Assembly (NCBI GenBank): GCA_001599295.1
Contig: BCGN01000001.1
Span: forward strand, 1,178,001 to 1,242,000
Reading direction: 5' to 3'
DNA length: 64,000 nucleotides
DNA from: Sporopachydermia quercuum
Taxonomy: Eukaryota
The notes beneath the pieces were generated by a model. That model saw only the letters and a program-made list of their open reading frames with translations. It searched no databases and was not told where the DNA came from. Below are positions 2,531-51,007 of the stretch, in pieces; position 1 is the first letter of the stretch; every line of letters starts with the position of its first letter. The position numbers were made by a program, and so were the translations under genes.

Positions 2531-5402
2531 TCCTCCTAGATTCATTCTTCCATTTTTCCATAGTTAATATATCATCAGGCTGTATTTATGTATGCATATA
2601 TTTGATCCTCACTTTTTCAGGTGCAGTCAGTCATTATACCTAAATCCCATAACTTGCGGTCGGATAAAGACGGACGAAGACATTTAATTATAAGTTTGTT
2701 ATTCAGACAACAACCTCACCTAGTATATGAATTAAACATCGGGATGATTACCCATTATATACATTATCGAGCTGTGCTGTTGGAATAAGGTTTCGATGAG
2801 ATAAGAAGTTTTGATGCCGCATGAGGAAATAGTAGTGCTGACATCAAAATTTTGAGAGCGAGGAAGGAAATTCGGTTAGAGACTCAAATGATTCTAACAC
2901 AATATACATTTAATTCAGTAGTTTCAAGCCCAACAATAGAATGCTAATAGTAAAGAAGATTCGTTACAACTATTATTTGATTCATAAATTCGAAGAGTCT
3001 CTGATAAGTTACCGATGAAGAGAAATTATTAACAATGCATAATAATGCATAAATCCGAACTCTAATATGTATTGGAATTGAGGAAAGGCAAATTAAATTG
3101 TTCATTCTTTCTTTCTGAATTGCCAAATAACACACAATGAGTGATATACAATAAACCATATCAATATAATCAATCGATTGAAACTAAGGATTGTGTAATT
3201 TGATCCCTTTATTGAACGAAGCCGTAATCATTTCTTCTCAATAGTTCATTTTCGCATATAATAACGGATAATCCAGCCAGTACTTGGATGTTGAATAATG
3301 TCAGGTTCGCTAGGTATAGTGAAGAAAGATTGCACACACTTTAACATCTAAGCGACCGGGCATAAGTAGGAAATTTCGAAGGAAACAGATTTTATAATTC
3401 TTTCGAGCATTCATTATCATAATTAACTGCGATTCANTCATTCTCTTTCGCATAGAATGCATTCTGCACGTGATATTACTACTTAAGCAAAGCTGAACTA
3501 TAAAAGGAACACAATGGCAAACGTTCAAAAATCAATACATATTAAGAAAATACACCTATTCCTATCTGTTTCAACAACTAAACCAACTACCATTATCTTG
3601 TCAGCCACAACAACTAACCCATGTCTCACCAGTAGACCTTCTAACAAACGTCCCCAACCATGNAACCTCTGATTCCATTTCACTTTTTTACAAGTTGTAG
3701 ACAGTAAGGGAAGTACATATAGTGCAAAATTCCTGCTTTCTTTCTCTTTAAACGCTAATCTTTCACCGTCCAAATAGGTTGTNAACTTGCACTTCAATCA
3801 GTAAAACACATCTTCTCAGTTTCAAGTTTTCAAGTTTTTCATTTATTCCTTCTTCTTCTTTTGAAAGAACTCGCTTCTCAAGTAACTAGCGCTACAAGAA
3901 GAACTCATTTATTCATTTCAATTGTTAATGCAAGGAGTCCCTTTAACCTTAATTTAATGTTTTCCTACTCAGCTCTACGTCTACTTCACTCTAAAATAAA
4001 GACAGAACTCACATTCGTTTATTGAATAAATAACAAATATCCTGAACAAATTTCTTCTAATCCACACTGCAACTGCAGTACATCAGATACACCATCGATA
4101 GTTAAATAACTTAATAATAAACGGCTTATACCGGTATGGGCGAGTTATGAACTTTCATAGATACGTTCTGGTCGAATTTTATATGTTGTACTGCAGAAGT
4201 GTGCATTGAATTTAACGAATTGGGAAGCTCCCCAAACCAATGTCCAGCGAGTAGTTTGTCGTTTGAATTCATAACATAGTGGAGGTGAAATTACCTGAAT
4301 CCAGTGTTCATTGATGCAGGTTGTGAACTCTGAAAATATGGGTTTATTTGCCTCCATCTGTAGCTCAATTTGTAGTAGTTCTCAATCTAAATTTGCTGGA
4401 AAATTTTGTGCCAGCGCTCTCTGGCATTTGGACTCTTTCGGGCTGAGAAATTTAAGTTTGTATTTTACTCACTTTCACTATTTGGTCAACTTTAAAAAGG
4501 GCCGTTCCCATCATTTCTCGGGAATAGGAGAAACTGGAATTTGTTGCTGAGAAAACCTGGGGAAATTTTACAAAGAAAACAGGCTATCTAGTGAAGGAAT
4601 AACCAAATAGGCCTCATCAGTCCGAAAGAAAGGGAAAAGAACATAGACTAAAGAGCAATTCTAAGGACGTCTATTTAATTATAGCAAAATAATATTATGG
4701 TTTTGTATCTCGCNTNCTNNNAGNANGCGAGATCTTCAGGTCTAGGGGGTCTCTGACCGCCAGACAAGCCTAGCTAATTCTCCAGAAATCGCAACTAAAT
4801 ATTTGAACTGGAGAATTGCTTACACCGTGAAACTCTTTCTTATTGGTATATATCACAAATTTTCATTATTAAATTTTTCTTTTAACTACCATATCTCATC
4901 TTCTTCGTCCGCCTTTTTTTTCTTTCATTCCAGTGAGATTTGCATCTCATCGGAGTCAACGTTGACAGATTAAGATTAGCGTTTACAACTACAGACAACC
5001 TTAAGTGGGGAACTCTAAAACTTTACTTCTATAGCATCATGCTTACCAAGATTTTTCAAGATATTCTCAAGCTTTTCATTATATAAACGAGGATTGGCTA
5101 TTCATTAACAAATAAACATAAATGAAAGAAGTCCACTTGATGAACTTGTTTACTATGGATCATTGTTCTTCCTTAAGCTATAAATTGGACAACTAGTACA
5201 ATCAATAAGGAAATACCCCGTACGAGGTAGATTTTAGATCACAGGGTTGAGTATCATTTCAAGCCATCAATCAGCTATTAAGGAGCAGGGAGTTCCAACA
5301 AAAAATAGTTGCTATCATCAGTTATAGCAGGCACCAAAGAAAATATCAATCAATTAATTGAAATACAAAGGCATTTAATCTAGCTGAACAGTTCAATAAA
5401 AG

Positions 5403-7277
5403 ATGAACTCAATTTCTATTTTAGATCTACCTGATGAGATTCTCTTCAAGATCCTACATGATGTGTTCATGACAACTAATGAACACTCAGGTTTCTATAT
5501 AAACGATAGAAGGAAATGGAAATTTAGTAAAAACGTTCCATATGTTTGCAGAAGATTCAATCAATTGTCTTACCAAATCCTTTATAATTCAGTTGTTTTA
5601 GAAACCGAGACTCAACTGATTGACTTCCTTTCAAATTCAAATCCTCAAAGTCATCAATTTATCAAATACTTCAACGTATCGAAATTGCATGATAGCAGTA
5701 AATCGTTCTCCAAGAGGAAATCAGTGACTGAACAATTGCCAGAATTCCAACTAAAATTCAATTCAACTCTCCAGTTATCAAAAGTAAAGTTATCTCCAGC
5801 AATTGATCGTTTTCTTACTTACAATTCCTTGCTACAGTTACTTTCTGGGCCAAGAGGTCATCTGAAGTATCTTGATATGTCAGGTATTGATACTGAACAT
5901 TTCAATGAATTATGGGTACAGTTAGTCAATGATACCGAAAGGAGAAATGAAGTTGTTCCTTTGTTGAAACAACTAAAAGGCATATCATTTCATGGATGCA
6001 CTACTTTACAACCTGAGGTATTTGAATTTGTTCTCAGGCATTTAAAATCTATCAAGAAGCTTGATTTATCAAAGACCCAGGTCATGGCTGATCACCTAGT
6101 ATCTCTATTGAAGGCCCACGATGATGATGATGATGCTGATGATGAAAATGAAGATAAAGAACTACAATTGACACACCTATCGCTCACAAATTGTACTAAT
6201 CTTTGGAATAGTTNTGAGCTAAACGCATCAATCACATTTTTCTCATTCTTAGCAAGGTTACCGCATCCTGATAAATGTGTTTTCTTGTCAATAGAATCAA
6301 CTACTAAACAACGAAATACTTTCACCCCTACAATGATTAGATCCTTGCTTGAAGTCCTAGATACAAAGGGTTTTGTCAATCTTCAGTATCTGAACATATC
6401 GAATCTAGTACCTTCTTTAACGGATGATCTACTTACCAATTTGAGGACTATTTTGTTGAAATGCAGCAACTCTCTGGTGTCATTATTCTTAAAGAATATC
6501 AACATTGCACCAGGAAGAGTGTTGAAATTGGTCAATGGATTAGAAAAGCTGAACTTCATTGATNTCAGTTTCAATCCGTCAGTAGCCTCATTTACTTTAA
6601 AGGGGACATCGTTTCTATTGGATTTACCAGAAAACGTTTCAGTGTTAGAATTCGAGCCATCAGTTTTAGAGTCAATCAAACCTGAAAGATTGGCCGAGAA
6701 AAATTGGAAAGTTACATCTTTACAAGGATCCAAACGATCATGGATTGTGAAGAATATAATAAAACCGGCAGTATCAACTACACGTTTAGCTGAAAGTTCT
6801 ACTTCCGAAGCAGTTTCAGAATCTCTGGATGACCACTTGTTTCAACCTATTGAAGAAGATGAAACAATATCTATTACTGTTAATTCAGAACCAATGGCAC
6901 CATCAACAGGCTCAGTATTCCGTTCACGATCAAGATCTCGCCACAGAAACAGATCTGTGGCACGGTCACCCAGTTTATCTTCTGCTCACCGGTCAATCTC
7001 TCGTTCCATGTCAAGACCGCGTAACGATTTCTCTCCTCCTCCACCAACAGGTTCAGTATTTACTAGTTCATATGTAAATGCCGACAACTATTCATTAGAT
7101 TCATTAACTACTTATACACATTCTGATAGTATAGCCACAGTGAGAACTAAGACATCAGCTGTACCCAATCTTGATATGGACGCCAGGTTAGTCTATGCAT
7201 CAAAGAAGTTAAGTTTAGATGATGATTCTGAAACAGTGGAAGATGGCGTTTACCGGTTCCTTGCTTTACGAACATAA
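5403..7277 (+). CDS. F-box plus leucine-rich-repeat protein (YLR352W-like), 624 aa
   Basis: N-terminal F-box ILDLPDEILFKIL...VCRRFNQL, then LRR-like repeats (LKYLDMSG, LKGISFHGC, IKKLDLSKT, LTHLSLTNC, LQYLNISN). Confidence 0.75.
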   Translation: MNSISILDLPDEILFKILHDVFMTTNEHSGFYINDRRKWKFSKNVPYVCRRFNQLSYQILYNSVVLETETQLIDFLSNSNPQSHQFIKYFNVSKLHDSSKSFSKRKSVTEQLPEFQLKFNSTLQLSKVKLSPAIDRFLTYNSLLQLLSGPRGHLKYLDMSGIDTEHFNELWVQLVNDTERRNEVVPLLKQLKGISFHGCTTLQPEVFEFVLRHLKSIKKLDLSKTQVMADHLVSLLKAHDDDDDADDENEDKELQLTHLSLTNCTNLWNSXELNASITFFSFLARLPHPDKCVFLSIESTTKQRNTFTPTMIRSLLEVLDTKGFVNLQYLNISNLVPSLTDDLLTNLRTILLKCSNSLVSLFLKNINIAPGRVLKLVNGLEKLNFIDXSFNPSVASFTLKGTSFLLDLPENVSVLEFEPSVLESIKPERLAEKNWKVTSLQGSKRSWIVKNIIKPAVSTTRLAESSTSEAVSESLDDHLFQPIEEDETISITVNSEPMAPSTGSVFRSRSRSRHRNRSVARSPSLSSAHRSISRSMSRPRNDFSPPPPTGSVFTSSYVNADNYSLDSLTTYTHSDSIATVRTKTSAVPNLDMDARLVYASKKLSLDDDSETVEDGVYRFLALRT

Positions 7278-7415: not shown

Positions 7416-9248
7416 CTATCGAGAATGATAATTATCTGATTTCACGTAATTTACTCTTCTGTCAACTGCTTCTATACCATGTTTCTGTTGTAAATAGTTT
7501 CTTGCCTCTTGACTTCTAGTCCCGCGTTTCCTTGTCATTATTAGTATCTGTTTATCATCCTCAGCAGTCCAAATTCCTGGAATATTACTGAAAAGTTCAT
7601 CAATTCTTTTAACCAATGTACCATTATCCAATTCGGGATCAGTTTTTACTAGATCTGACTTCAGTATAGTACTCAAGCACATGTTGAAAGTATGATTATC
7701 ATCACCTAAAAGACTTTCAACAGCTTGTTCCACAAAATGTGGATGTACATCAAAAAGCTCAGATATTATTATTACATATTTTTGGACTTCTTGCTGATAT
7801 ACTGCCGTAGAGAGAAGGAAATCGGGTGCTTCTGGTAATTCAATATCACTTCCTGGCTGTTGACCAAATTGATGGTGATTTGGTGATTCTGACGCTGATA
7901 TAGTAGTTGTAGTTGTGGTAGTGGTAGTTGTTATAGTTCTATGACTATCATTGATATCAGTTTCGCTGTCCCGTCGTTGCTTGGGAAATATTTTGTTGAC
8001 AAATGTTGATAGCAGCCAACCAGCACGGGAAGGACTGGTTCCATCTTGTAAATTGTCTTGATGTGAACGGATTTGACGTTGTGGTGTTGTTTGAAAGAAA
8101 GAAGAGTCCAAATTACGGGATTCGTCTGATAAATGAATATGTGGCGTGTTTGATTGAGAAGTCGGTTCGTCAATTGACGATCTTTGTAAGGTTTCTAAAG
8201 CTCCTCTGTTTATTATTATCGATTCATGTTCTCCAGTTTCTTCCTGTTGCTCTAAAACTGTTGTTTTTTCTTCATTTTTACTTTCTTCTCTTGATTCTTC
8301 GTGGTTTCTGTTCTCCTTCTCGTGAAATTGACTCGTTCTTCTATGATCATCAGCAGATAATATACTATCTAATTTACCTTCTGCCTCAGCTTTGAGTAGT
8401 TTCCGGAGTTTAAATCGTACACCGTAGAAATTCCGCTCTTTGTTAAATTTATCCTTGATATCCTCAACTATTCTTCTACATATTTCTGCTTCCGATTGCT
8501 TTTGGGATTTACCTTGCCTATACTTTGAAATCATAAATCGTACTTCATCTTCCGAATACAACCTTTCGTCTACTTCTTCACCATTAGGATTTTCGTTTTC
8601 AGAATCCGAATTCGATTCCAAATCAATGTCTAAATCTTTCTCTTGGGAAAATTCTACTAATTCATCAACACTCAATGTTTTCTCCTTAAACTTCCGTAAT
8701 TGGTGTTCTTTGACTAACACCCTGACCTTAGCTCGAACTCCATAAAAAGTTCTGTTTGCGCTATCATCTAAATGACGCAGTATTCCACGTACAATTGAAG
8801 CTTCTGAGNGTTGTTTTCTATATCCTGTGGCAATCCTTTGAATCATCATCTTCTCTTCTTGTGGGGTATATACTACTCGTNTAAATTTAGTAGTTTCAAT
8901 TTTTGACCTTGTTTCAAAAGGAGCAAAATCCACCATTTTCTCTTTGGAAATACTCTCATAAACGTAATCAGTATTCAATACTGGCTTCTCAGGTATATTA
9001 TTGATTTCCTCGTTTTTAAACCTATCGACAAGAACAATATCTGCATCATTGATGTTATGTACTACTTTCCCTCCATTTTTTATTATCAAATCTTCTAGCA
9101 TAGAAGTAGCAAATTCCATGTCGTCAATACTCTGAATATAAAATATTAAGGGTACGTTAGAGCCATTTTTAGTGAAAATTGGAGCAATGATAGTGGTNGT
9201 TTCGCTGTTAGATTCATCATCAGTATTGTTTGATGATGCAGTAGTCAT
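7416..9248 (-). CDS. RAP1: Rap1-like telomere protein, paralogue A: BRCT + two Myb-like repeats + Rap1 C-terminal (RCT) domain, 610 aa
   Basis: BRCT-like IFTK...LEDLIIKNGGKVV...DADIVLVD...DYVYESI; repeats YTPQEE...RTFYGVRAKVRVL and YSEDEV...RNFYGVRFKLRKL; RCT signature IPGIWTAEDD...KHG...R. Confidence 0.75.
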   Translation of the reverse strand: MTTASSNNTDDESNSEXTTIIAPIFTKNGSNVPLIFYIQSIDDMEFATSMLEDLIIKNGGKVVHNINDADIVLVDRFKNEEINNIPEKPVLNTDYVYESISKEKMVDFAPFETRSKIETTKFXRVVYTPQEEKMMIQRIATGYRKQXSEASIVRGILRHLDDSANRTFYGVRAKVRVLVKEHQLRKFKEKTLSVDELVEFSQEKDLDIDLESNSDSENENPNGEEVDERLYSEDEVRFMISKYRQGKSQKQSEAEICRRIVEDIKDKFNKERNFYGVRFKLRKLLKAEAEGKLDSILSADDHRRTSQFHEKENRNHEESREESKNEEKTTVLEQQEETGEHESIIINRGALETLQRSSIDEPTSQSNTPHIHLSDESRNLDSSFFQTTPQRQIRSHQDNLQDGTSPSRAGWLLSTFVNKIFPKQRRDSETDINDSHRTITTTTTTTTTTISASESPNHHQFGQQPGSDIELPEAPDFLLSTAVYQQEVQKYVIIISELFDVHPHFVEQAVESLLGDDNHTFNMCLSTILKSDLVKTDPELDNGTLVKRIDELFSNIPGIWTAEDDKQILIMTRKRGTRSQEARNYLQQKHGIEAVDRRVNYVKSDNYHSR

Positions 9249-10556
9249 TGTGCCTGTGATTGCTGATAAGGTAAATCACAACAAGTAGATAGATGTATCT
9301 GATACTGTTGATAAGCAAGTGAAAGTGAAAGTAAGTCAAAAAGAGAAAAATAGTTTACTATTGAGGTTGGCCCTTAATGAAATACGAGTATTTAATTGTG
9401 TAGTTTGACCATAGCAGTTGAGTTCGCTACTGGATAGTAGTATGGTTTCGATAGTAAATAGGAGGAAAGGGAGGGGTGAAGGAGGTTTCGTTTACTCGGA
9501 ATTAAAGTTTGGATTCATGCGAGAGTTATGCAATGTGTATGCAGCTAAGTTATCTAATTGGTGGGTATTCAACATACATACGAAATGATAATAATAAGTT
9601 GATGGATGGTGAAAAAATATAATAAAATAAAATAAAAAATGGGTATTGAGAAGTATTGCAAGTTGACTATTCCTCAAATATCGAGCTGCAACTTAGTATT
9701 CATTGTATGTAATGAGCTAGCGCGATATAGCATATGTAGCTTTTCATAATAGTAAGGAATAAGAAGAGGTAGAGCAAAAGCAAATACTGTAAACTCAAAT
9801 TAAAGTGTATGTCAATCATTGATGGTGAGAAGGGATACTTGTCTCAGTAGGAATGATGGTTGAGAGTATTTCAGTTAAAGGTGTTAGAAGTAGATACTTA
9901 TTTTAAGCTTTCTTTCNTTGAATTTGGTAAGTAGATAGAGCTCGTTATTTGTCTTCCTCACATGTTTGACAACACGCATGGAATCATTGATGTTAAGGTT
10001 TGTTGTTGACAGGCTAAAACCTTATGAAATGGTTATCTTCATTGTACTTCTAAAGCTATTAGCTATAATGAACCAACTATAAGAAAGAAAAACAAAAGGC
10101 TGCTGTATGTCAAGCTATTTATCTTCTCATCAAATAATCTTTCTATCCTGAAAATTAAATCACTGAAGTCTTCCGTATAATAACTATAGAAACTTAACAA
10201 AGAAGTTGCTGGATTATAGTTCTAGCTTAGGTTTTGACCGTTAACTTTAAATTTATTTGAAACTTTAGCTCTACTGATTCATTTCATTTAAAATAATCTG
10301 ATAACATAGAAGTAGGCCGACTTGTCAATAGATAGAGCTGTCCTAGTCTACGTAAAATAAACAACTACACTTACCGTCATGTCTATATCTTCTCAAAAGT
10401 ACTCCTTGAAACATTGATCCGCAAATTTATCTACATTACATCTATACATTCATCTTGAAAATACCTTGTATCTAACTTTGAATTGCATCTTCACTATCTT
10501 CTAATCGTACATACAAATCAATAATAAATTTCACTACAATACACGCTTATCTAAAA

Positions 10557-12563
10557 TCAAAAGCTCAGACAATTACTAGATTGAGCATAGGTTAACCGCA
10601 ATAAATAATTATCTTCGCCATGTTTGTCGATAAGGTTTTGAACAAGTTTCGACCTCTTCGTTGATGAGATTTTTGGGTTCAAAATTCTTTTCAGAGCAAA
10701 ATCATCTCCAGTGGTCCAAATGCCCGGGGTATCAGGGAAAAGATCGTCCAGTGATTGATCCTCTTCTTTCCCATAATCAGATGAAAACACCATTTCATAC
10801 TTTTCAATAAGCTTTTCAGTGTCATTATAATCTATGCCTATTAATGCTTCATATACTTCTCTTGCAGTCATTGCTTCTATTTCGTACCGATTACAGAGAT
10901 AATCAATATGATCAGCCAGAAGTTTTTCGTATTCATCAAATCCAAGATTGAGGTCAGGTCTAAGAGGAATTATATCATTTTTTGTCTCATCATGTTGTCC
11001 ATGATCCGGAATTGCTGATTCTGAATCAGAAGAAGTTGCTTCTATTCTATCAAGTGCTGGTGTCAGATGATCTCCATCACGCTCAATAGTACTTGTAGAT
11101 TTCTCTAGTATATTGAACATCTTCGAACCTTTGAACAGGCTTATCTGGGTATTTACTTCTGATCTTCTGATCTCTGTGGGCTGCTGAGCTGTATTTGATT
11201 TGTTCGCAGCAAGGGTTTGAATTTTCTCTAGTATAGAGGCTGATATACTGCTGCTAGCAAACTTTGACGGCGACTGTGATGCATCAGTTTCTTCTTCGAT
11301 TGGATCATTGGACTCATTCGGTTGTAGTTGTGGTATTAATGAATTCATATCCATCCGTTGACGTTTACTGTCAGGTTCATCGTTTGAGTTTTGTTGTGTA
11401 GAGTTGATGGTGTTTCCTGAGTCAGATAATTGTGATGAATGTTGCGATTGAAGAATAGCAGATTCTACTTGTGAGCTGATTTCGTTTGAATCGTTGCTTT
11501 GAGTAGCTATTTCCGAAATGCTTCCGGAAATGTTCTCCTGCTGCTGTATCTCAGGAATATCTTCAAGAATGTCTTCATTAGAATCTTGCTGTGTTTGTTC
11601 GATCATTGATGGTGTATCATCTGTTGTACTATGATCCAATTGCCGGGGTGGGGATGATGTTCTTTCTTGTGTTTGGTTTTCTCTATTTAGAGAGAGGTCC
11701 TCGTCAGGCTCATTATTTCGTCTGATGCCCATAGTTTCATTGTTATTCGAAGAGGCAGTAGTAGTAGCATTCACACTGAGAGATTCATCGATCTGAGGTC
11801 CATTATCAACTCTAGCAGATTCAGCATCTATTTGAGCCTTAGCCTTGCTCTCTCGACTTGAAGCCTTCTTTGGACTTGATACCTCTTCTTTAGGACTTGG
11901 TGTGTCATCATTTTCAGCGGGTTCATGCTCAATCAATGCTGCTTCCGGAGCAGGCATATAACTTCTTCTTATTTTAAGATCAGAAGGAAGTTTACTAGGA
12001 CGCCAATACTTAGGCGGGTGATCAACATATTCTCCTTTTTCAACCTTCTCCCAGTAAGGTTTCGCTTTCCCAATATCAAATCTTCTTTTATCGGCCAAAA
12101 TCCGTAATTTATAACGAACAGCATCAAATGACCGGCTTGATCCCATCTGTCTCACTATTTCAAACACTGTTTCACGTTCTGTTTTATTTTGCGCTCTATA
12201 TTCTCTGCAAATAGATTCCATCAAATCTTCTTCATCAGATGTGTAGTTGATTGGTCTCCCTGTTGATGTAGTANTTATACCTACCCGAAAATTAACCAAT
12301 GAAGGTAGCTTGTTGTCATGAACAGCTTTGTATAAAAATTCCAGTTTAAATATTTGACATCGTATATTAACAGGCATTGGAGCTCCTTCTTGATATAGAA
12401 CAATATCTGCATTTCTTGTTGACTGTACTATTTCACCCCCACCTTTAAGAATTAGCTTCTCTAATAGCTCTATTCTTGGTGAACGAGGAGGTAAAATTCT
12501 TATTTTCAGAGGTTCGTCATCTTTCGTGAAAAGGTCACTCGCTATTGTTTTTTGAGCTGCCAT
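10557..12563 (-). CDS. RAP1: Rap1-like telomere protein, paralogue B: BRCT + single Myb-like repeat + acidic S/Q-rich linker + RCT, 668 aa
   Basis: BRCT-like LFTKDDEPL...LEKLILKGGGEIV...NADIVL; Myb-like NYTSDEED...RSFDAVRYKLRIL; RCT signature TPGIWTTGDDFAL...LIDKHG...R. Confidence 0.75.
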   Translation of the reverse strand: MAAQKTIASDLFTKDDEPLKIRILPPRSPRIELLEKLILKGGGEIVQSTRNADIVLYQEGAPMPVNIRCQIFKLEFLYKAVHDNKLPSLVNFRVGIXTTSTGRPINYTSDEEDLMESICREYRAQNKTERETVFEIVRQMGSSRSFDAVRYKLRILADKRRFDIGKAKPYWEKVEKGEYVDHPPKYWRPSKLPSDLKIRRSYMPAPEAALIEHEPAENDDTPSPKEEVSSPKKASSRESKAKAQIDAESARVDNGPQIDESLSVNATTTASSNNNETMGIRRNNEPDEDLSLNRENQTQERTSSPPRQLDHSTTDDTPSMIEQTQQDSNEDILEDIPEIQQQENISGSISEIATQSNDSNEISSQVESAILQSQHSSQLSDSGNTINSTQQNSNDEPDSKRQRMDMNSLIPQLQPNESNDPIEEETDASQSPSKFASSSISASILEKIQTLAANKSNTAQQPTEIRRSEVNTQISLFKGSKMFNILEKSTSTIERDGDHLTPALDRIEATSSDSESAIPDHGQHDETKNDIIPLRPDLNLGFDEYEKLLADHIDYLCNRYEIEAMTAREVYEALIGIDYNDTEKLIEKYEMVFSSDYGKEEDQSLDDLFPDTPGIWTTGDDFALKRILNPKISSTKRSKLVQNLIDKHGEDNYLLRLTYAQSSNCLSF

Positions 12564-13618
12564 ATTGGTGTAATGCTTTTGTTTTTAAAGATTGCTGTTT
12601 GTCATTACTTGATAGTTATTCTTTATCGCGCCTAATATGTTTGTTCTACTTATTCAAAGGAAAATGCTATCTGAGTACATATAAACGAAATGAATCAAAC
12701 ATCAGATTGCCAAAGTAAAAGGCAATCCTTTTGATTTGAGCCGTGATACTCTGATTGCGGTCAGATGTGAAGAANAAAAAACTCTTGTCATCACCGACGA
12801 GGTGTTCGAACAGTATAAACTATTGATATCAGAAAAGTAAACAAAAATTATTAGAGAAGAGGCCCGCATCTACGCGGAAGTTAAGTTTCATGCAATACTA
12901 TGCACGTATAGCTTTTTAGGACAGTTCAAGGGGACCATGGGACAAAGTTGCTTCAAAAGAAAATATATTTAGCTGCACTCACTGTTAATGACTGTGTACC
13001 TAGAATAAAATAATTTTATATTATTAGCTGTATATTCTTGAGTTTTATTACTTCCGAAATGTAACCTCAATTAGATCTAATCACTTTCTATTTNAGTGTC
13101 ATGAAGTACATCCTCAGCTTCATTTGCACAATCTTACAGTATCTTGCATATACTTCAATACACTTGCATATCCATCAATTTACTTATTGTTCAGTTTAGT
13201 TCTCTCAAAGAGATCTACACTATACTATCAACCAAAAGAAGAATAGCAATTCCCTACTATTATTCTTATAATGTATACTACTAACATAACAACAATAGTT
13301 TATTTTCGANAATCATGGACTTGTCTTTATTCCTACTTCACAATAAAATCTCAGGAACAGCCCCTTCAACCTCACTAATAAGCGTTTACATAATCTAAAA
13401 ACAATCTTAATCGATCTGATCTGCAAAGCCGTAACCAGAAACAACAACAAAATGGCTATTCATTGAATTCACGTCTGTTGATCTGCATGTTATTTGTTAC
13501 TTAAAAACTATTCTTTTAATCTTTTAAGTCGTGATAAACTTCTTGAATCCACACTCTTTCAAGTTGAAGGAACGTTGATAGCAAAATCAAGTAATTATGG
13601 TTTCAATGAGCTAACAGA

Positions 13619-14384
13619 ATGAGTATAACCTTCTTGTGCATAGCAGTATTGGCTCTGGTGAACATAGTGGTTATTCGGATAGCAATTCTGTTGCCAACTC
13701 TCCAATCTCAACCAGATATAAATAAAACGAAAAGGCATGGAGAACGGACAAAGTTGATGGTTTTCCTTGGGTCAGGAGGCCATACTGGTGAAATGTTCCG
13801 AATGATAGATAAGCTTGATCTCAGTAATTACTTTGAAAGGTATTATATTTACTCTTCAGGCGATAATACATCTAGAGAGAAAGCGGAAAAGTACGAAGAA
13901 CAGAAATGCTCGAAATTGGATGTGGGAGCAAACTCTAGATCTTACAAGCTTTACGAAGTTGTCAGAGCTCGAAAAGTTGGTCAATCATGGATTAGCACAC
14001 CTTTTACTACTGTGATGAGTTTACTGAGTTGTTTGAGGATAGCACTTTTAAGTCCTGAGGTGATCGTTTGTAATGGACCGGGAACAACAGTTCCTTTGTG
14101 TTACCTTTTGTTCTTGTTAAATGTATGTGTGATATGCTTTTCATTTATGAACTAACTTTATGGGAACCGTTAAAGTTTCATTCTGGTACTAACCAAATGG
14201 ATTATAGGTTGTCGGTTCGAATAAAACAAGAATAGTATATATTGAATCTTTGGCTCGGGTGCAATCATTATCATTAACTGGAAAACTTCTTTTGCCAATC
14301 GCCAACAGGTTTATTGTTCAATGGGAACAATTGAGATACAAGTATGGTAAAGGTAGACTAGAGTATTATGGGATCTTAGTTTGA
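13619..14384 (+). CDS. ALG14: UDP-GlcNAc transferase subunit Alg14; exons 13619-14122 and 14208-14384
   Basis: VFLGSGGHTGEM, RARKVGQS, CNGPGT motifs; splicing restores C-terminal IVYIESLARVQSLSLTGKLL...FIVQW. Confidence 0.93.
14123..14207 (+). other. Spliceosomal intron (ALG14), 85 nt
   Basis: GTATGT donor, TACTAAC at 14187-14193, TAG acceptor; phase 0 keeps frame. Confidence 0.92.
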
Positions 14385-15166
14385 AACCAGAGAAGATTAG
14401 AATGAACAAAAAGAAGCAAACGAAGAAACCCAAGACAACAATCTGAACATGAAGCTAGGAGAATCCCCTGTACTGAAGCTCTATTTATGTGGTCCTTGCA
14501 TTTAATCATTCGTTTGCTTATTTATATTATTTATATTTAATAGTAATTTGCATCAAATTCATTAATGGACTCTCTCATTGAACTAAGAAAAATGTCTTTC
14601 AACTTTTGCATTCATCATCTACAATCTCAATTTGTTAGTTATACTCCTAGAAGAGTTCAGCATTTACCTTTACAATTTTCAACATTCTTTTCATCTGTCT
14701 TCATGAAGTTAGCTCTCAATTGTTTCTTTGTTTATCATCTTCATCATTTATTCATCTTANGGTTATTTAGAGGTTGATCCCTGTTTTATATGATTATGTG
14801 ATCCAATAATTGCCCAATTTCATCAATGAGTTGCTCCGCATCCTTCCATGTCATGAATGACAAGACAAATACGCAATGAAAAAAAACTCAATTGTTCATG
14901 ACAAACTATACCAAACAATTGCTGTACGAAAAATGACTAAGACGTCGCACCTATAATGTAATACTCCCTTATATGGGTGCTTGACAGGCAGACCATTCCG
15001 ATATGAAAGACAATTGAGCTGTACTTCTTTCTTCTTCCTTGTTTCAAATAGTTTCTTGTTTTTTCAATTTATATCGAAAGCATTGAATTCCGAATCAAAG
15101 TAATCTGAATTGAACGAACAAGTATTTGATTAACACAAAGATATTTCTAATTTACAAACTATCAAA

Positions 15167-16086
15167 ATGGTAAGTAGATTGTTGACGGAATAGAAGGAGG
15201 AGATGGGATGGGATCATGATTGATGAATCCGAATTGCTTGAAAGATATATACGAATACGGAACATTAAGAACAGAAAGCGAACAATGGTCAGAACATTCC
15301 TACAAACAATTAAACATTACTAACAGTTACAATTAGGCTCGTATTTTTTTTGTTGGAGGTAACTTCAAGATGAACGGCAGTCTAGCCAGCATCAAGAAGA
15401 TTGTTGATGATTTGAATGCTGCAGATTTACCTTCTAATGTTGAAGTTGTTATCTCACCACCTGCACCTTATCTTGCTTTAGCTGCTGCTGAAAACAAACA
15501 ACCTACTGTTTCTGTTGCTGCTCAAAATGCTTTCAACAAGGCATCTGGTGCTTACACTGGTGAAATCTCAGTTGAAAGCATCAAGGATGTTGGTGCCAAG
15601 TGGGTTATTCTTGGTCATTCTGAACGACGAACTATCATCAAGGAATCTTCTGAATTCATTGCCGACAAGACTAAGTTTGCCCTTGATAATGGCGTTCCTG
15701 TTATCTTATGTATCGGCGAAACTTTGGAAGAACGTCAATCTGGCAAGACTTTGGATGTTTGCAAGTCTCAATTGGAGCCTGTCATTGCTAAGTTGACTGC
15801 TGATGACTGGAAGAACGTTGTCATTGCCTACGAACCTGTCTGGGCTATTGGTACCGGTTTGGCTGCTACCCCTGACGATGCTCAAGAAACCCATAAGGGT
15901 ATTAGAGCTTATTTGAAGGAAAAGCTAGGTGAGGAAATCGCCGAAAGCGTTAGAATCTTGTATGGTGGCTCCGTCAATGGCAAGAATGCTACTACTTTCA
16001 AGGACAAGGCTGATATTGACGGTTTCTTGGTTGGTGGTGCTTCCCTCAAGCCTGAATTCATTGATATTATCAAGAGCAGAATCTAA
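15167..16086 (+). CDS. TPI1: Triosephosphate isomerase; exon 1 is the ATG only (15167-15169), exon 2 15337-16086
   Basis: Spliced N-terminus [41 protein letters not shown] motifs; strongly biased codons. Confidence 0.97.
15170..15336 (+). other. Spliceosomal intron directly after TPI1 ATG, 167 nt
   Basis: ATG|GTAAGT, TACTAAC 15318-15324, TAG|GCT CGT in frame. Confidence 0.93.
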
Positions 16087-24608: not shown

Positions 24609-26364
24609 TCATGTTGTGTTAGAAATTATCATGGGTATTGTAATCGTCATGATAATACAAACTCCAACGTAAAAGATATTCAAATGCGACAATTGATCAA
24701 GCGCGTTGTTTTTAATCGAAAAGAAGTTCTTTCCTTTATTTTTGTTTGAATTTTGCTTATGTCTGTTCCTGTCTCGCGTTACTTGATAATTCATCGTTTC
24801 GTCTATTTGTTCAACCATCTTCACTCTTGGTGATTTAAGTTTAGTTTTTCCATCTGCATTAATTATTATATGGTTTGTTGTAAATTTTTCGGGACCTAGA
24901 TTGACATATCTTCCTATCTCTACTTCTACACCAGTATTGATTAGATCATCAGCAATTGATTCAGGAAGTCCCTTTGAAATGTCAAGATTCTCGTACGCAT
25001 CATCGCATGGAACGAACTCTGGCTTCTTTTTTGATGTGATCTTTGAGATGGATGGCTTAGAAGCTTGAGCGTAAATGGTTTTCAGAGTATTGAAGTCAGG
25101 TAGTAGAATTGAATTTCCTTTTTCATCATAATCAACCAATCCATAATTATTTGATTCTTGAGCAAACTCGTAAATAAGCCCTCCACTGAAGACATCAGTC
25201 ATTTCTCTAGAGTAAAGGGCTAAAACTTCTTCAAATAATCTAGGTGTGATTTCGTTGCACCCGTATCTTTTGATAAATCAGTTAATATGGGAACTTGTTT
25301 TCTGAATCAAAAGGATCAAACGTACTCTGATAAAAATACTGGTCGAGAATAATATTCATAATCTTGTACTAGCGTGTCGTATCCACTTGAATGGAAAGTT
25401 TGCGATCCGCACCCTGAAGATGTTAGTCAAACAGAAAATATACAATATTTGATAGCGGCAGCGTAGTAATGACTTCAATCAAATTTAAACAGGGTACTTC
25501 AGACATTGATAGGAATTCACTCCATAAAAGTCCACAGCTTCGGATTCTTCTCCACATTCAAGATATTTGGATAATGAAATACGATATTGTAAATCATCTG
25601 CTGCAGAATAGCCCACAGGTATACTTCTAGGTAAGTTGAAATTGATATAAGCTTTGATATCCCTTATCACACCTTTCATAAAAGTAGAACAAACCTATGT
25701 AAAAAGGGAACATTAGTGTGATGAACATAGTCAAACAAGCTNAATTTGGTATCAGTACTTGTGCAGATCTTCGATCATTAATAACTTCATTTCCAGCGAA
25801 ATAGGCTAAAGTATTGTTGTAATAACCAAACTGTTCGACCACTTGGAAAACATGTTTCATGTAATCGACGTTATATGAGTGCCAGGGGTCATATCTATTC
25901 AAACTTTCGTTGGGACCTGGTGAGTTGANATCAAGAACCAAATATATACCTGCGCTTGCTAAGAGTGTCATACATTGATCGTGATTCAAATTAGGATTTA
26001 CCGAGTAAACACGAATCGTATTGATACCAAGCTCTTGGAACAAGAAAATATCTCGTGCACAATCTTCAATATTTGAGAGAGGGTCCCATGACTCTGATAC
26101 ACCTGATGATCCTCCTGGTTGATAGTCAACTCCACGAATAAAGAACTTTCTAGTTAGTAAATCAGAATCTATCTTGCCCTCGTTTCGCGATCTGATACAG
26201 CATTTTGCTTCTAATTGCTGCTCCTATTAGGTATGTCATACAGGTTCATTAGTAACCACATCAACAAAATATCTACCTCTAATTTCTATTGAATGAATGC
26301 AATATACTGGTAAAACCCAACTGGCCAAAACTACAATGCATTGCAGAAGTAGTTTAGCGCTCAT
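24609..26364 (-). CDS. GAS4: GH72 1,3-beta-glucanosyltransferase Gas4-type (no Cys-box), 5 exons: 26364-26242, 26145-25759, 25694-25505, 25413-25326, 25266-24609; 481 aa
   Basis: Splicing joins signal peptide, [49 protein letters not shown] and hydrophobic C-terminus; closely resembles S. cerevisiae Gas4 as I recall it. Confidence 0.88.
25267..25325 (-). other. GAS4 intron 4, 59 nt, donor GTACGT, branch TATTAAC, acceptor AAG
   Basis: TCA GA|GTACGT...AAAG|A TAC GGG TGC rebuilds catalytic SEYGC. Confidence 0.85.
25414..25504 (-). other. GAS4 intron 3, 91 nt, donor GTCTGA
   Basis: CAA T|GTCTGAAGTACCCT...GACTAACATCTTCAG|GG TGC rebuilds the conserved YQWCG. Confidence 0.85.
25695..25758 (-). other. 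GAS4 intron 2, 64 nt, donor GTACTG, branch CACTAAT
   Basis: CAA|GTACTGATACC...CACTAAT...CATAG|GTT; restores frame between ORF-track fragments. Confidence 0.8.
26146..26241 (-). other. GAS4 intron 1, 96 nt, donor GTATGA, acceptor AAG
   Basis: CCT|GTATGACATACC...TACTAACTAGAAAG|TTC; only this junction gives [11 protein letters not shown]. Confidence 0.85.
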
Positions 26365-26610
26365 TGTGTTCAAATCAAATCAATCCCACTCAACTATTAT
26401 AACTAAATCCAAGCAATTATCTGAACCACTACTGATAGTCAACATTCCTTTGATACGATAAGATAATAGTCTTCTTTCTGATCGCAATACAACTACATCT
26501 ATCCCATATCGTAACTCGTGCCGTATAATAGCGAAATAATAACTGGTGAATTATGAATCAAAACAATACATTATCCATTCCTTCCTTCATGATAGGATGG
26601 ACCCCCACAG

Positions 26611-37321: not shown

Positions 37322-38503
37322 CTAATGGAGTTTCAGCTCCTCTTTTTCCATACCATCCTGATTTCTATCCAAAACCGCGACTTTTCTAACTGACTTCTTG
37401 ACAGTTGGCCTTTTTACTCTGCACCATAAATCAACCCGATCATTGGTAATGAAATCCCAAATCACTCTAGACCAGCTATCATGCTTNGGCAAAGGTTCAT
37501 AAAACTCGTTCGCTATGTCATAAACCTGATATAGCCTAGTCCACGGAATGAACGGGAAGTCATGATGCTCATTATGAAGGCCAACATTATAAACCAGTAT
37601 ATTGAATACTCCATAGTAACTGAAAGTCTCTGGAGGAGGAGCATCATTTTCAACAGTGTAATGCTCCGGTGGATCAAGATTGTAGTGTTCAGCAATGAAA
37701 TGACCAGCCAACGGATGTAGAGAGCCAGCCAGAAATGATGACATTAGAAGATAGAACATTGAATACCATCCTAGATACTTTACGATGAAATAATCAATTG
37801 TGAATTGATATACTAGATTCATCAAATGGAATTTTGTCATCTTGACTTGAGTAACACACATTGGCCGAATAGCATAAAATAATAGTTGAAAAGTGCAGAA
37901 GAATGTTTTCCCTAAGATATTGGAAAACATTATAGCTTCCAGCTTAGTTGGTAAATCAGTATCGTAGGTTTCATCACCTTGAAATTTATGGTGCAGTTGA
38001 TGATATGGTTGAAAGGAAGCACTATAAGGAACACCTATAGGCATATTAGCGAAAATAGAGAATAGCTTATTATGCAAAGGCTTCTTGAATCCTAAGTTAT
38101 GACTTAGCTCATGAATAGCAAGAAAAATGTTTTGATTGCATGTCGCTCCAATAACATAGGCTAGTAATAGGAATTCCCATGAAAATGGATGCGTGTTGCG
38201 TAGGAAGTATGCAATTGAGAATTGGACAAGAATGACAAATAAAACGACATATTTCGTCAAAGGCTCATGACCACATAATTTTGATATCTCAGGATGCTTC
38301 TTCAAGATAGCTTTCCGCCGACTTCTATGAGGCTCTTCTTGATAAGTCCAGAACCAATCAGGAGTAGTATTCTCAACATTATGATCTATAGTAGTTGAGA
38401 TTTTCGCTGTTTGTTCTGAATCAAATCTCGACTTATCAACTTCCCCAAAAGCTCTATGCGGGGTGCCTGTACCATTTGATCCAGGTAATACTTGGACCAC
38501 CAT
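37322..38503 (-). CDS. DES1: Sphingolipid delta-4 desaturase, 393 aa
   Basis: EEPHRSRRKAIL N-terminal motif and three His boxes HELSH, HQLHH, HNEHH. Confidence 0.92.
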   Translation of the reverse strand: MVVQVLPGSNGTGTPHRAFGEVDKSRFDSEQTAKISTTIDHNVENTTPDWFWTYQEEPHRSRRKAILKKHPEISKLCGHEPLTKYVVLFVILVQFSIAYFLRNTHPFSWEFLLLAYVIGATCNQNIFLAIHELSHNLGFKKPLHNKLFSIFANMPIGVPYSASFQPYHQLHHKFQGDETYDTDLPTKLEAIMFSNILGKTFFCTFQLLFYAIRPMCVTQVKMTKFHLMNLVYQFTIDYFIVKYLGWYSMFYLLMSSFLAGSLHPLAGHFIAEHYNLDPPEHYTVENDAPPPETFSYYGVFNILVYNVGLHNEHHDFPFIPWTRLYQVYDIANEFYEPLXKHDSWSRVIWDFITNDRVDLWCRVKRPTVKKSVRKVAVLDRNQDGMEKEELKLH

Positions 38504-42123: not shown

Positions 42124-44584
42124 ATGGCTTGCCCACATATCACAAGTACTAATGTTAGAATCCCTTCACCATATGATGCAGTTCATAAAGATGAATGTAC
42201 TATGTGTTTCGACACCACTGTATGTTGAATCAATGAGAAGGAATTTTTTTGNCTGTTGTTTATTGAATTTAATTTTGAGTTTTTGTTTTGTTTATGGATC
42301 CAAGCTAGATTCCCTACTGGCAAGCTACTAACCATATTTCTAGGAATCAGAGTATGGTGTAGATGTATGCTTGGCATGTTTCAATAGTGGATCAAGAGAT
42401 CCAAATATGGATCATACAAGGTTTCACTATCAATTGACATCCCATCCAGTTATTGTGAACATCAAAAAGAGACGTAAGGATGATCTAGACACTCGTAAGA
42501 ATAAAATAGCTAAACTTGAAATCAAAGAAGAGTCTGAAAAAGAACTTTACACTACCACCACACAGGTACTTTGTTTAGAATGTGAAATGGTACTTGAAAA
42601 GGAAGCGAAGTTAGAAAAAGTTGTTGAGGCAGTTCTAAACGCTGACTCTTATTCTAATAAAGCAGAAGTCAAAGCTTGGGAAGCAGAGATCAAACCCTGT
42701 GAACATAGCATTTCATTAGAGCAGCTAGATATAGATAAGAAAATTACCAACGAGTCTTCCTGCAATGACTGTGATTTGAGAGAAAATCTGTGGCTTTGTC
42801 TGACCTGTGGCAACTTAGGTTGTGGTAGAGCTCAATTTGGAGGAGTAGGAGGACAAAGTCATGGCTTATCACATTATGAAGCCACCAAACACCCCATATC
42901 AGTGAAATTAGGGTCATTGTCTCCAGATGGTGGTGCTGATGTATTTTGTTACAGCTGCAATGATGAAGTCGTTGATCCTAGTGTTGGAAAGCATTTGAGA
43001 AAGTTTGGTATAAATATCGCTGATGTTATAAAGACTGAGAAATCAGTTACTGAATTGAATTTAGAGCAAAATTTACAGTGGAATTTTAAAATGACAGAGG
43101 ATGGGAAATTTTTGAAACCAGTATTTGGACCTGGCTTGACTGGGATGAAGAACCTGGGTAATTCTTGTTATATTGCTTCAGTTGTTCAATGCTTGTTTAC
43201 TGATAGATCTTTTATCGACAAGTTTTACAAACCAGAACCGGCAGAATGGCCGATAACAAACGATCCAGCCAATGATCTAGAAACTCAACTATGCAAATTG
43301 GCCCATGGTTTGTTATCAGGTAAATATTCAGTTCCAGATGAGTTTTCTAAGTCCGAAGACAATGAGGAAGGTGTTCAATATCAAAAGGGAATAAAACCAA
43401 CAATGTTCAAAGATTTGATTGGTAAAGGACACGAGGAATTCTCGTCAATGAGACAGCAAGATGCTTTTGAATTTCTTACTTACTTATTCACTAAGATTGA
43501 TGATTTATATAAGAAAAAAGAGAATCCCGTTTCTGCTTTCAAGTTCGAAATGGAGGAACGTCTTGAATGTAAATCATGCAAAAAAGTCCGTTACAACGGA
43601 CTAAAAACCGACAATATATCATTTTCAGTACCTGCAAATGAACTTGACGATGGAAAGTATCAAGAAGTGTGTCTGATTAAATGCTTTGATAGTTTCACTG
43701 AACCAGAAGAGATTGAATATATATGCAAGTCATGTGCAAATAAGGTTTGGATTAAACAGACTAAGTTCAAAACCTTACCCCAAACCTTAATCGTTAATGC
43801 CAGAAAGTTTGCGCTAATCAATTGGGTACCTTCTAAGCTTGAAATACCTGTTACTATTCCTGAAGGTCCTATTAATCTTGAGAAATATATCAGCTTGGGA
43901 ATTCAACCTGGGGAAGAAATACTAGAGGATGACGAAGAAGATTCTTCCGAAGGTAACAATGCAGATTTTACAGTTAATCCTGAAGCTATGATGATNTTAG
44001 AATCTATGGGATTTCCTGCTAATAGATGCATCCGTGCATTATATAATACAGGCAATTCAAATGCTGAAGAAGCTATGAATTGGATTTTTGCTCATATGGA
44101 TGACGCAGATATTGACACACCTTTTGAGGTACCCCAAGAAGATAAGAAGAATAAGAAGAACGCTGTTTCTGAGGAATCGATCAACTCTTTAATGGCCATG
44201 GGTTTCAGCAGACCTCAGGCTGATAAAGCGTTGAAAGAGTGTAGAGGAAATGTGGAAGCTGCAGTTGAATGGGTTTTCAACAATCCTCAAGATCCAGGAA
44301 TGACAGAAGAAGGTGAAGTTGAAGAAGAAGAAGATAATGATAATGATACAACTGAGCCTGGGGTGATTGGCACAGCTGAGAAGCCAGCCAATTATCTTTT
44401 GAAATCAATAGTATGTCATAAAGGTAGTGGCGTTCAAACTGGTCATTATGTTGCATTTATTCGTAAGAAGGTTGATGATGGGGATGAGCAATGGGTTTTG
44501 TTCAACGATGAGAAAGTAGTTATTAGTGGAGAAGCTGATGAGTTAAAGAAACATGCTTATATTTATATCTTTGAACGTGTCTAA
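42124..44584 (+). CDS. UBP14: Ubiquitin-specific protease Ubp14 (USP5/isopeptidase T); exons 42124-42219 and 42344-44584; 778 aa
   Basis: VHKDECTMCFD, ZnF-UBP NLWLCLTCG, Cys box GMKNLGNSCY, two UBA domains, His box GHYVAF. Confidence 0.95.
42220..42343 (+). other. UBP14 intron, 124 nt
   Basis: GTATGT, TACTAAC 42326-42332, TAG; phase 0. Confidence 0.9.
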
Positions 44585-45250
44585 AACAAGANAAGATAAT
44601 AGCCACCGTCGAGGATAAAATTAAATCCATTCAAGTATGTTTGACGAATAAATTGGATATCGTACACTGTTTCAATATTGAATAACAATGTAAATCATAC
44701 GATATATAATACTGAAAAGAAAGTATATGTTGAAAGGGAAGACTAATATGTTTCAAGAGATGATCAAAGAATTCAGGCATTTATATATTTCTCATTCATT
44801 ATTATCCTTTCTTCTGACTACTTAACTTCCCCGTAAATCAGTAGAGTATAGGCATATAACATGAGTTTTCTGATATCTACGAAAGATTCCAGAATATATA
44901 TGTATAAGTGTACAGTTCGAAAAACTATGATTCATAGAGTACTTAATATTCTTATTCTTTAATCCTGTCATTTTAAACGTCATGGTTATAGGGTATTTCA
45001 TTGAGTATCGTAAAAAAAGCCTGCTCATTATGAGTTACTTTTTTATAATGATGACTTTTAATTAGCTAGCTTTCTTTTGAGACAAATCCTATTTAACTCT
45101 ACAAAAAAGCTCTTTTTATTTATATGTCATACCATGTAATAATGCGATTGCTAGAGTATATAGGAAGACATAGGATATATAACCAAATGAACCAAACAAT
45201 ACTTTTTCTCCTTTCTTCTACCTTGATCCGATTTTCTTTTTTTACATCAT

Positions 45251-46393
<1,143 letters not shown>

Positions 46394-47748
46394 CTAAATA
46401 AATATTTTGTTAGTAATCCCAATCGTATTATTGGTGTGTTGATAGTAGTCGTCGATCGTAAAAGTGGTTGAAACGTTGATTAAGCAAGGTAGATATTCTG
46501 GAGGTTAAAGCTATCACCAAAAAGTAAGATAATGGCTTTACCCATCATCTGAACTTTTCATCAATTATAATCAGTATTTAGTTGATAAGGGATTCAAACC
46601 AGTTGATAGTAACAAGAAATGACGATAATAACAAATGTGGAGTGAAAAACTATTAACAGATTCTTCATAGTGTCACATGTCAAATGAAGAATGAATGACC
46701 TGATGAATAAATGATCATATAATCATTTAACTCGGTAGTAACTCAAAATTCACCACAAAAACTGATGGACCGTTTGTTATAATGAGAATAAAACGAGACA
46801 AATATCAATTTCAAGATAATAGTAGTTGTAGGAATAGAGGAGATATTGATGAACATAGGGTAATGAACTATTGTTAAAGCGTAAAAGATGAGAGTGACGT
46901 ATTGAAAGAGCATAGCCTTCTGGTTGCATGTAATGGGCANAATCTAGTAAAGGGTGGGTATTATGTGGACATCAAAAATGAAAACAAAAAAGCTCCTCGC
47001 TCTTCGTCTGACCCGATGTATGTAATGAGAGAAATCGCATGGAATTGAGTCTTAATAAATGTGATTGTTCGAGAAATGTCTGGGAGATCAAGGTGGCTCA
47101 ACATATTGAGGTGTGAGACACAATTGTCCACCGATATCTCAGCGCTCCAACCAGGTAACCCGATGTTGGTCTATTTCAAATTATTTGACACCAGCTTATT
47201 TCNAGCCTTTCCTCAAAGCATATTCAGTTCATTTGCTGCTTCTTGGAAGAAATTCAATAATGATTAGAATACTTTCCGCCAATCACATCCCATTCATTAA
47301 AATTCAACCTCTTGTCAAGAATCTTAAACAACATAAACGAGATGGACAATCTCAATGCCCATTACTTCCAATTCGTAAATTCTTATATAAAGAAATTACC
47401 ATTCAGTTCCACCTCTCAAATCATCGTTTTCCACGTTTCATCTGAACTGTGAACCTTGCTTCATATCTTATTTTCTTTTTCAAGTATAATACTTACTGGC
47501 ATCTTGATATTATCAGTCAATCAATATACACAAGTTCGAAAAGTTTTCACTTTGAGATTAATCTATAATCTTCTATACTGGGATTCTATATTTCCTATTA
47601 TACAACGTAATAAAAAAAGAAGGAACCATATATCAGTTATTCAAACTTTGCACTATCCAATCTAAATATGTGAAAAAGAAGAAAGAATGAAATAAATAGC
47701 GATGATAGAAATAAAAAAAAAAGTAAAGAGATGGGATTCTGAAAACTC

Positions 47749-47755
47749 TGAGTCA
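47749..47755. promoter_or_regulatory. Gcn4/AP-1-type site TGAGTCA in ARO3-GCN20 divergent intergenic region
   Basis: Perfect 7-mer; ARO3 is a known Gcn4 target in yeasts, but the site is 1.4 kb from the ATG. Confidence 0.35.
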
Positions 47756-50670: not shown

Positions 50671-51007
50671 CATATAGAATGAAGTCTTCAATATATGATA
50701 AAGCTATTGCGTCAATGTACTACAATTAATGTTAGATTTAACATAATAATTAGAATTTATTATAATTAGTAAATTAAATTAAAGTCGTGATCTCATAAGT
50801 CGTAAAAAAAAAAAATGGAACTACATTCAATAATGAACGAATTCACCATGAGAGAAAATCGGTAAACATTAAAAAGAAAGTTGAAAGGAAAACTCTAATT
50901 GATCGAAACGAATATAGGGAAGATTGAATGCAATCATTCTTACCCTCAGGTTTGTAGTGGTTACCGATACCCCTTATCACCTGATAAACCATTAGGCTGA
51001 ACGTAGA

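Follow-up and report, generated by a model that had tools for sequence, protein, structure and literature searches.

A 64,000-nucleotide stretch of the Sporopachydermia quercuum genome (GenBank assembly GCA_001599295.1, contig BCGN01000001.1, positions 1,178,001 to 1,242,000 of the forward strand; this whole stretch is referred to below as the window, with position 1 as its first letter) carries two adjacent open reading frames (ORFs) on the minus strand, designated here gene A (7416..9248) and gene B (10557..12563). The first-pass annotation of this DNA, made from the letters alone, had described them as neighboring same-strand genes, each combining a BRCT with an RCT domain in the manner of Rap1, and this description was borne out: the coordinates coincide with those in the ORF listing, Pfam Rap1_C was recognized in both products, and BRCT_2 was recognized in A and, below its cut-off, in B. 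Probably, a Rap1 (TERF2IP-family) gene was duplicated in tandem long ago, which has left two real and intact genes, the products of which differ in the number of their central three-helix units.

Gene B lies upstream of gene A in the direction of transcription, across a gap of 1308 bp, and in both cases the ORF start is the first ATG of the stop-to-stop frame (7419..9275 for A and 10560..12584 for B). Four codons contain N and were translated as X, namely, residues 17, 123, and 147 of A and residue 97 of B; in the window as a whole, N occurs at 65 positions, most of them isolated, apart from a single cluster and a stretch of five in a row (e.g., at 4714..4726 and at 48115..48119). The features of the locus, and the evidence on which each is based, are the following:

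7416..9248, minus strand: gene A, Rap1-family by sequence, 610 residues, with BRCT, two three-helix units, linker, and RCT (ORF; Pfam Rap1_C and BRCT_2 above cut-off)
8916..9176, minus strand: BRCT of A, residues 25-111 (Pfam BRCT_2, E 7.9e-9, 36.1 bits)
8688..8879, minus strand: putative three-helix unit 1 of A, residues 124-187, net charge +8 (unit alignment; low-confidence AlphaFold2 [AF2] model)
8370..8567, minus strand: putative three-helix unit 2 of A, residues 228-293, net charge +6 (similarity to unit 1; AF2)
7842..8369, minus strand: linker of A, residues 294-469, Ser/Thr/Glu-rich, with a run of eleven Thr (composition; unalignable to B)
7419..7838, minus strand: RCT region of A, residues 471-610, with the Pfam core at residues 547-602 (7443..7610) (Rap1_C, E 2.9e-9)
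9249..10556, no strand assigned: intergenic spacer between B and A (no coding signature in any frame; no Rfam family)
10557..12563, minus strand: gene B, Rap1-family by sequence, 668 residues, with BRCT, one three-helix unit, long linker, and RCT (ORF; Rap1_C; homology to A)
12267..12548, minus strand: BRCT-like domain of B, residues 6-99 (sub-threshold BRCT_2; aligns with the BRCT of A)
12066..12260, minus strand: putative single three-helix unit of B, residues 102-166, net charge +2 (AF2 model and Foldseek)
10965..12065, minus strand: linker of B, residues 167-533, Ser/Glu/Asp-rich, without a detectable second unit (composition; repeat profile)
10560..10964, minus strand: RCT region of B, residues 534-668, with the Pfam core at residues 608-659 (10587..10742) (Rap1_C, E 1.5e-5)

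The spacer at 9249..10556 is presumably the site of the promoter of A and the terminator of B. The threonine run in the linker of A (residues 438-448; 7899..7937) is encoded by mixed Thr codons and is not a pure trinucleotide microsatellite, Tandem Repeats Finder reporting only an imperfect periodicity of 6-15 nt.

Family assignment and maintenance of both genes

Sequence comparison assigns both A and B to the Rap1 (TERF2IP) family by virtue of an N-terminal BRCT and a C-terminal RCT. The Pfam profile Rap1_C (PF11626) matched A at E 2.9e-9 (37.3 bits, against a cut-off of 24.2) and B at E 1.5e-5, in both cases over the C-terminal half of the profile only (positions ~35 to 83 of 84), and BRCT_2 matched A at E 7.9e-9 (36.1 bits, against a cut-off of 27.3). 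BLASTP aligned the two proteins with each other in their N-terminal parts (residues 19-190 of A with 6-168 of B; 30% identity, E 8e-13) and again in their C-terminal parts (residues 436-609 of A with 499-667 of B; 28% identity, E 1e-9). A thus carries the BRCT expected of a Rap1-family member, and a BRCT in B is probable, mainly because the corresponding region is homologous to the BRCT of A. The RCT regions are 29% identical, with PGIWT, DD, and KHG invariant, and the PGIWT..DD...KHG motif that had been pointed out at first pass was found in both A and B.

Searches of the Protein Data Bank (PDB) led in the same direction. A joint RCT profile of A and B returned three matches at E <= 10, and all three were the RCT of Saccharomyces cerevisiae Rap1 (3owt, 3cz6, and 4bj5; E 0.03-0.06); the best sequence match of whole B was the BRCT of human TERF2IP (7oz0, E 0.58), aligned over the full domain, and the best matches of a joint BRCT profile were to the BRCT domain of PARP4 (E 0.22). 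Although weak in E value, these matches comprise the right domains with little else, which argues for the membership of A and B in the Rap1 family.

Outside the shared motifs the two proteins have little in common, and the old divergence proposed at first pass was supported in this respect. The linkers of A and B could not be aligned by BLASTP, and blastn between the two gene regions produced no more than a pair of brief matches in colinear order (47 nt at E 0.007 and 48 nt at E 0.024), which by our own coordinate conversion map to the stretches coding for "GG..ADIVL" of the BRCT and "PGIWT" of the RCT. Since DNA similarity is left only at these two short motif-coding stretches, the duplication appears to be old.

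The coding potential of the pair was evaluated with codon tables derived from a further 17 ORFs in the window, comparing in-frame with off-frame models and expressing the result as a score per codon. In-frame scores of 0.333 for A and 0.364 for B fall within the range of the 17 control genes (0.24-0.61), and for either gene the remaining two frames gave negative scores. Each of the ten sub-segments was positive in frame (0.26-0.42), the linkers included (A, 0.337; B, 0.422), while both flanking intergenic spacers were negative in every frame. As the long frames are still open, the coding signature extends throughout, and what A and B have conserved lies mostly in the three domains, the data indicate, at the level of sequence, that both are maintained coding genes, and the first-pass view of two coding copies stood.

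Relatives of the pair were sought in several collections. A word-indexed protein search with residues 470-610 of A (maximum E 10), and with whole A and whole B, over the default length range gave no match, and phmmer with A against 1.84 billion representative proteins gave 0 matches at E <= 0.001; as the presence of fungal Rap1 in these libraries was not verified, the negative outcome does not mean that relatives are lacking in nature. X-free pieces of A and B submitted to the ESM Atlas had best scores of 0.82-0.84, to eukaryotic clusters, which is a recognition below the level of known families. Exact look-up of six neighboring proteins in a 15-billion-protein collection found none of the six. 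In the literature searched, no description of a tandem RAP1 pair was found.

The central three-helix units

The first-pass annotation had counted two repeats in A and one in B, and on this count BLASTP, the alignment of the units, and a unit profile agree. BLASTP aligned the second repeat of A (residues 231-284) with residues 107-156 of B (35% identity, E 2e-4). The unit profile, which was built from the three units themselves and run on the 301 six-frame ORFs of at least 50 residues in the whole window, matched both units of A and the single unit of B, that is, its own training sequences; it detected no second unit in B even at a domain E of 10, none elsewhere in the six-frame ORFs of the window and, with it, no other Rap1-like gene in the 64 kb.

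Pairwise comparison by local alignment under BLOSUM62, with each pair shuffled 500 times, gave the highest score for the two units of A (97, z 16.2, with 23 of 55 positions identical), followed by the B unit with unit 2 of A (65, z 7.4, 19 of 50) and with unit 1 of A (63, z 10.0, 21 of 54). The B unit and unit 1 of A are positionally equivalent, each following directly after the BRCT. Because the two units of A are closest to each other and the B unit matches unit 1 of A in position, an internal duplication in A is suggested, and the simplest reading of the sequences would be that a single unit was present in the gene ancestral to both and became doubled within A; alternatively, two older units in A may have been homogenized. 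Under either origin, the two units of A are not the dissimilar Myb1 and Myb2 pair of canonical budding-yeast Rap1. The likening of A to the two-Myb Rap1 of S. cerevisiae, as put forward at first pass, therefore had to be given up, since the units of A are closest to each other (97 versus 63 and 65) and no match to the S. cerevisiae Rap1 DNA-binding domain was obtained: phmmer with whole A and whole B against the PDB returned no chain of that domain at E <= 1.

The fold of the unit was approached through B. An AF2 model of residues 98-178, of moderate confidence and computed from a three-row alignment of the units, reached a mean predicted local distance difference test score (pLDDT) of 73.5, with 82-90 in the core, and forms a three-helix bundle with helices at fragment positions 12-27, 32-43, and 49-67. 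About three-quarters of the 43 Foldseek matches listed for this model are, going by their descriptions, of the homeodomain, POU, Myb, or SANT type, Myb and SANT accounting for nine of the 43. A RAD MYB domain stands at rank 2 (TM 0.54, nonsignificant) and the S. cerevisiae Rap1-DNA complex 3ukg_A at rank 12, with a root mean square deviation of 2.4 Å over 55 columns that is the lowest among the matches listed, this match likewise being nonsignificant. Judging from the model, a three-helix domain of the homeodomain-like type is a plausible reading of the unit, which is situated where Rap1 has its Myb. The term "Myb-like" used at first pass thus survives in part: the fold speaks for it weakly and nonsignificantly through the AF2 and Foldseek results for the B unit, while the profiles do not, for in the profile searches that had been suggested as a check Rap1_C was positive for both proteins and BRCT_2 for A (below cut-off for B), and the Myb and Rap1 DNA-binding profiles were negative. 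The third helix of the unit presumably resembles the corresponding helix of the first Myb of Rap1, a resemblance that we treat as a lead and not as a test.

Two groups of matches were discarded in the course of these searches. Pfam matches of the isolated units to Sina_TRAF and CARME were at chance level, and matches of the unit profile to designed helical repeat proteins in the PDB (E values down to 6.9e-8) were judged to be compositional, consisting of many sub-threshold stretches in repetitive sequence.

Origin of the pair and alternative explanations

A and B are adjacent, have the same orientation, and carry homologous domains in the same order, as tandem duplicates do. Under the duplication that we favor, both proteins would have kept their BRCT and RCT as interaction modules, with a homeodomain-like (Myb-type) unit after the BRCT followed by a long, disordered, acidic/Ser-Thr linker, and A would have gained its second unit by internal duplication after its separation from B. 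By analogy with two-Myb proteins, the two basic units of A (+8 and +6) on a flexible acidic spacer could contact DNA directly. The one weakly basic unit of B (+2) may not bind DNA stably on its own, and B might reach chromatin through partners of its BRCT and RCT, like the one-Myb Rap1 of Schizosaccharomyces pombe and human; the RCT of each protein may recruit partner proteins at telomeres or promoters.

Several observations weigh against this interpretation: (i) the Rap1_C score of B exceeds the cut-off by only 1.2 bits (25.4 versus 24.2), and its BRCT_2 score is below the cut-off (E 0.012, 16.3 bits versus 27.3); (ii) neither A and B as whole proteins nor their isolated units matched the Pfam Myb, SANT, or Rap1 DNA-binding families, the fragments not even at E 10, and the three-unit profile found no Myb in the PDB; (iii) the AF2 model of residues 115-300 of A, computed from a two-row alignment, shows two groups of three helices at low confidence (pLDDT 50.7), and Foldseek returned for it no usable fold match and none at E <= 0.001, with 0 matches at that threshold for the B unit as well; (iv) the closest-pair argument draws on an alignment of only ~55 residues, and gene conversion could account for it; (v) DNA binding can be judged only roughly from net charge; and (vi) the searches described above found no homologue from another organism that could bear on selection, timing, or the order of the duplications.

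A and B might instead be accessory Rap1-like paralogues, the main telomeric and transcriptional work being done by a canonical double-Myb RAP1 elsewhere in the genome. Such a status would fit the lack of any profile match of A and B to the Rap1 Myb and DNA-binding families, which are the best-conserved parts of budding-yeast Rap1 as described in the portions of the literature available to us, and it would fit the ordinary conservation of the housekeeping proteins nearby: the neighboring Ssl1 is ~57% identical to S. cerevisiae Ssl1 by a count from the alignment (E 4.5e-134), which argues that the genome is not globally hyperdivergent. On the other hand, there is nothing else Rap1-like in the 64-kb window, and in the same portions of the literature no description was met with of a budding yeast that has three genes of the Rap1 family; we regard this explanation as rather unlikely.

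The pair could also be the form that the Rap1A/Rap1B duplication known from the "methylotrophs" clade (Pichiales and allies) takes in this yeast, still in tandem. The genetic code of the window is compatible with such a placement. The seven alignable CTG codons, located in an ABC-F protein and Ssl1, stand opposite L (three), F (two), M (one), and C (one), on which alignment evidence CTG is read as Leu and a reading as Ser or Ala was rejected; this speaks against a placement in the CUG-Ser or the CUG-Ala clade, Pachysolen included, and most of the methylotrophs clade reads CTG as Leu. The window further contains a sphingolipid delta-4 desaturase gene (37322..38503, minus strand), which is not known from S. 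cerevisiae and fits a non-Saccharomycetaceae yeast, together with other genes common in such yeasts. In the part of PMC6510891 available to us, two Rap1 homologues are reported for eight genomes of the clade; the same part describes the two genes of Hansenula polymorpha as unlinked and both of their products as having a duplicated Myb, in which the similarity to S. cerevisiae Rap1 is greatest. A and B have no match to Myb or Rap1 DNA-binding profiles, B has one unit, and the units of A are each other's closest relatives. The duplicated Myb of the Rap1A and Rap1B subfamilies is accordingly not seen here, B having a single unit and neither protein matching the S. cerevisiae Rap1 DNA-binding domain. 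The 0 phmmer matches for A among 1.84 billion proteins are also hard to reconcile with a close kinship to the published Rap1 proteins of Pichiaceae, if the library includes those, which was not verified. Taken together, we consider this origin improbable.

That one copy, most likely B, is a decaying duplicate without function would agree with its marginal Pfam scores (Rap1_C 25.4 versus 24.2; BRCT_2 below cut-off) and with a second unit lost or never present, but is highly improbable given an open frame of 668 codons in a 35% G+C genome, a coding signature equal to that of the 17 control genes (0.422 in the 365-codon linker), and a conservation between A and B that is concentrated in three domains, as expected under selection on both.

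The pair is embedded in an AT-rich (33-39% G+C), gene-dense region with yeast-type genes, in which the tRNA scan and Rfam returned nothing. A 624-residue ORF on the plus strand (5403..7277) is convergent with gene A, at a stop-to-stop distance of 139 bp; no Pfam family matches it at E 1e-5, its N terminus appears F-box-like (LDLPDEIL..I) by eye only, and its C-terminal part is Ser/Arg-rich. Several neighboring genes have short introns (~55-110 nt) with ACTAAC-type branch sites, among them a GTATGT...TACTAAC intron in ALG14 (14120..14220), an apparent intron with a TACTAAC branch site directly after the ATG of TPI1 (15280..15370), and at least three introns in a GH72/GAS-like gene (24609..26400, minus strand), several of whose 5' sites begin with GTAC; the number of introns per gene is above the Saccharomycetaceae norm. 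A gene for a mitochondrial PDK/BCKDK-type kinase is located at 56713..58236 (plus strand). The gene order in 13619..16086 and 42407..51853 (ALG14, TPI1 ... UBP14-like, DAHP synthase, ABC-F, and a YRO2/MRH1-like rhodopsin-family protein) presumably recalls the paired S. cerevisiae chromosome II/IV blocks ALG14/UBP14/YRO2 and TPI1/ARO3/MRH1; if this correspondence is correct, some synteny with Saccharomycetaceae is retained, and the RAP1 of S. cerevisiae lies outside the block.

Significance and comparison with known Rap1 systems

Rap1 is the one telomere protein common to yeasts and mammals, and the change from a one-Myb shelterin subunit recruited by other proteins to the double-Myb protein that binds the telomeres of budding yeasts directly has yet to be explained. 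In the present tandem pair, one member has a single unit and the other has two self-similar units, which would make it a concrete case of a gain by internal duplication. The part of PMC7857110 available to us asks whether the Rap1 ancestor had one Myb, with a later gain, or two, with a later loss, and the internal-duplication reading, if true, would support one of these two scenarios. One could go further and regard the two neighbors, a Rap1 with one unit and a Rap1 with two, as a natural intermediate, caught in a lineage without a detectable relative among 1.84 billion representative proteins, in which direct DNA binding would have been gained by internal duplication of a Myb; the pair would then allow a direct comparison of a "protein-recruited" with a "DNA-binding" Rap1 in a single cell, but we find this doubtful. 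If the tandem duplication is accepted, the pair stands as a second, independent-looking Rap1 duplication beside the unlinked Rap1A and Rap1B of methylotrophic yeasts, the value of the pair being limited for now by the weak Myb assignment.

With S. cerevisiae Rap1, A and B share the order of a BRCT, helical DNA-binding-type unit(s), a long linker, and an RCT, as well as the RCT motif PGIWT..DD...KHG, which aligns to 3owt, 3cz6, and 4bj5, whereas the DNA-binding domain has no sequence match in either of them. The second Myb of canonical budding-yeast Rap1 is larger and has extra helices, according to the part of PMC12449055 available to us. Myb1 and Myb2 of S. cerevisiae Rap1 are dissimilar in size and sequence, in contrast to the units of A, which are near-copies of each other.

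B is akin in its architecture to human TERF2IP and S. pombe Rap1, which likewise have a BRCT, one central unit, a linker, and an RCT. Both of these contain one Myb and are brought in by TRF2 or Taz1 through the RCT. In the 64-kb window, no gene for a TRF2- or Taz1-like partner and no telomere repeat was visible. The sequence similarity of B to human TERF2IP is marginal (BRCT 7oz0, E 0.58), and its unit is weakly basic (+2). One-Myb Rap1 proteins of human and S. pombe do not bind DNA directly and are recruited to telomeres by partners, whereas two-Myb forms bind, as set out in the accessible part of PMC7857110. By description only, A also resembles Tay1/Teb1-type proteins in its two similar, basic, putatively three-helix units in tandem; Tay1 has neither BRCT nor RCT. 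Proteins of the Tay1/Teb1 type have two tandem Myb domains and bind TTAGGG-like repeats.

Strongly diverged Rap1 paralogues, two to a budding-yeast-type genome, are also represented by HpRap1A (W1Q7Z6) and HpRap1B (W1QDN2) of Hansenula (Ogataea) polymorpha, one of the eight methylotroph genomes with two Rap1 homologues (PMC6510891). The authors of that study, in the part of it available to us, detected no second, B-like Rap1 in other Saccharomycotina. The two systems differ in that the H. polymorpha genes are located on different chromosomes and both encode a duplicated Myb, where they come closest to S. cerevisiae Rap1, whereas A and B are in tandem, have unequal numbers of units, and have units that are not recognizable by profile. 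In H. polymorpha, Rap1B is found at telomeres and Rap1A at subtelomeres, while the promoters of ribosomal protein genes carry both (PMC6510891, same part), and with this precedent a division of labor between A and B appears plausible by analogy.

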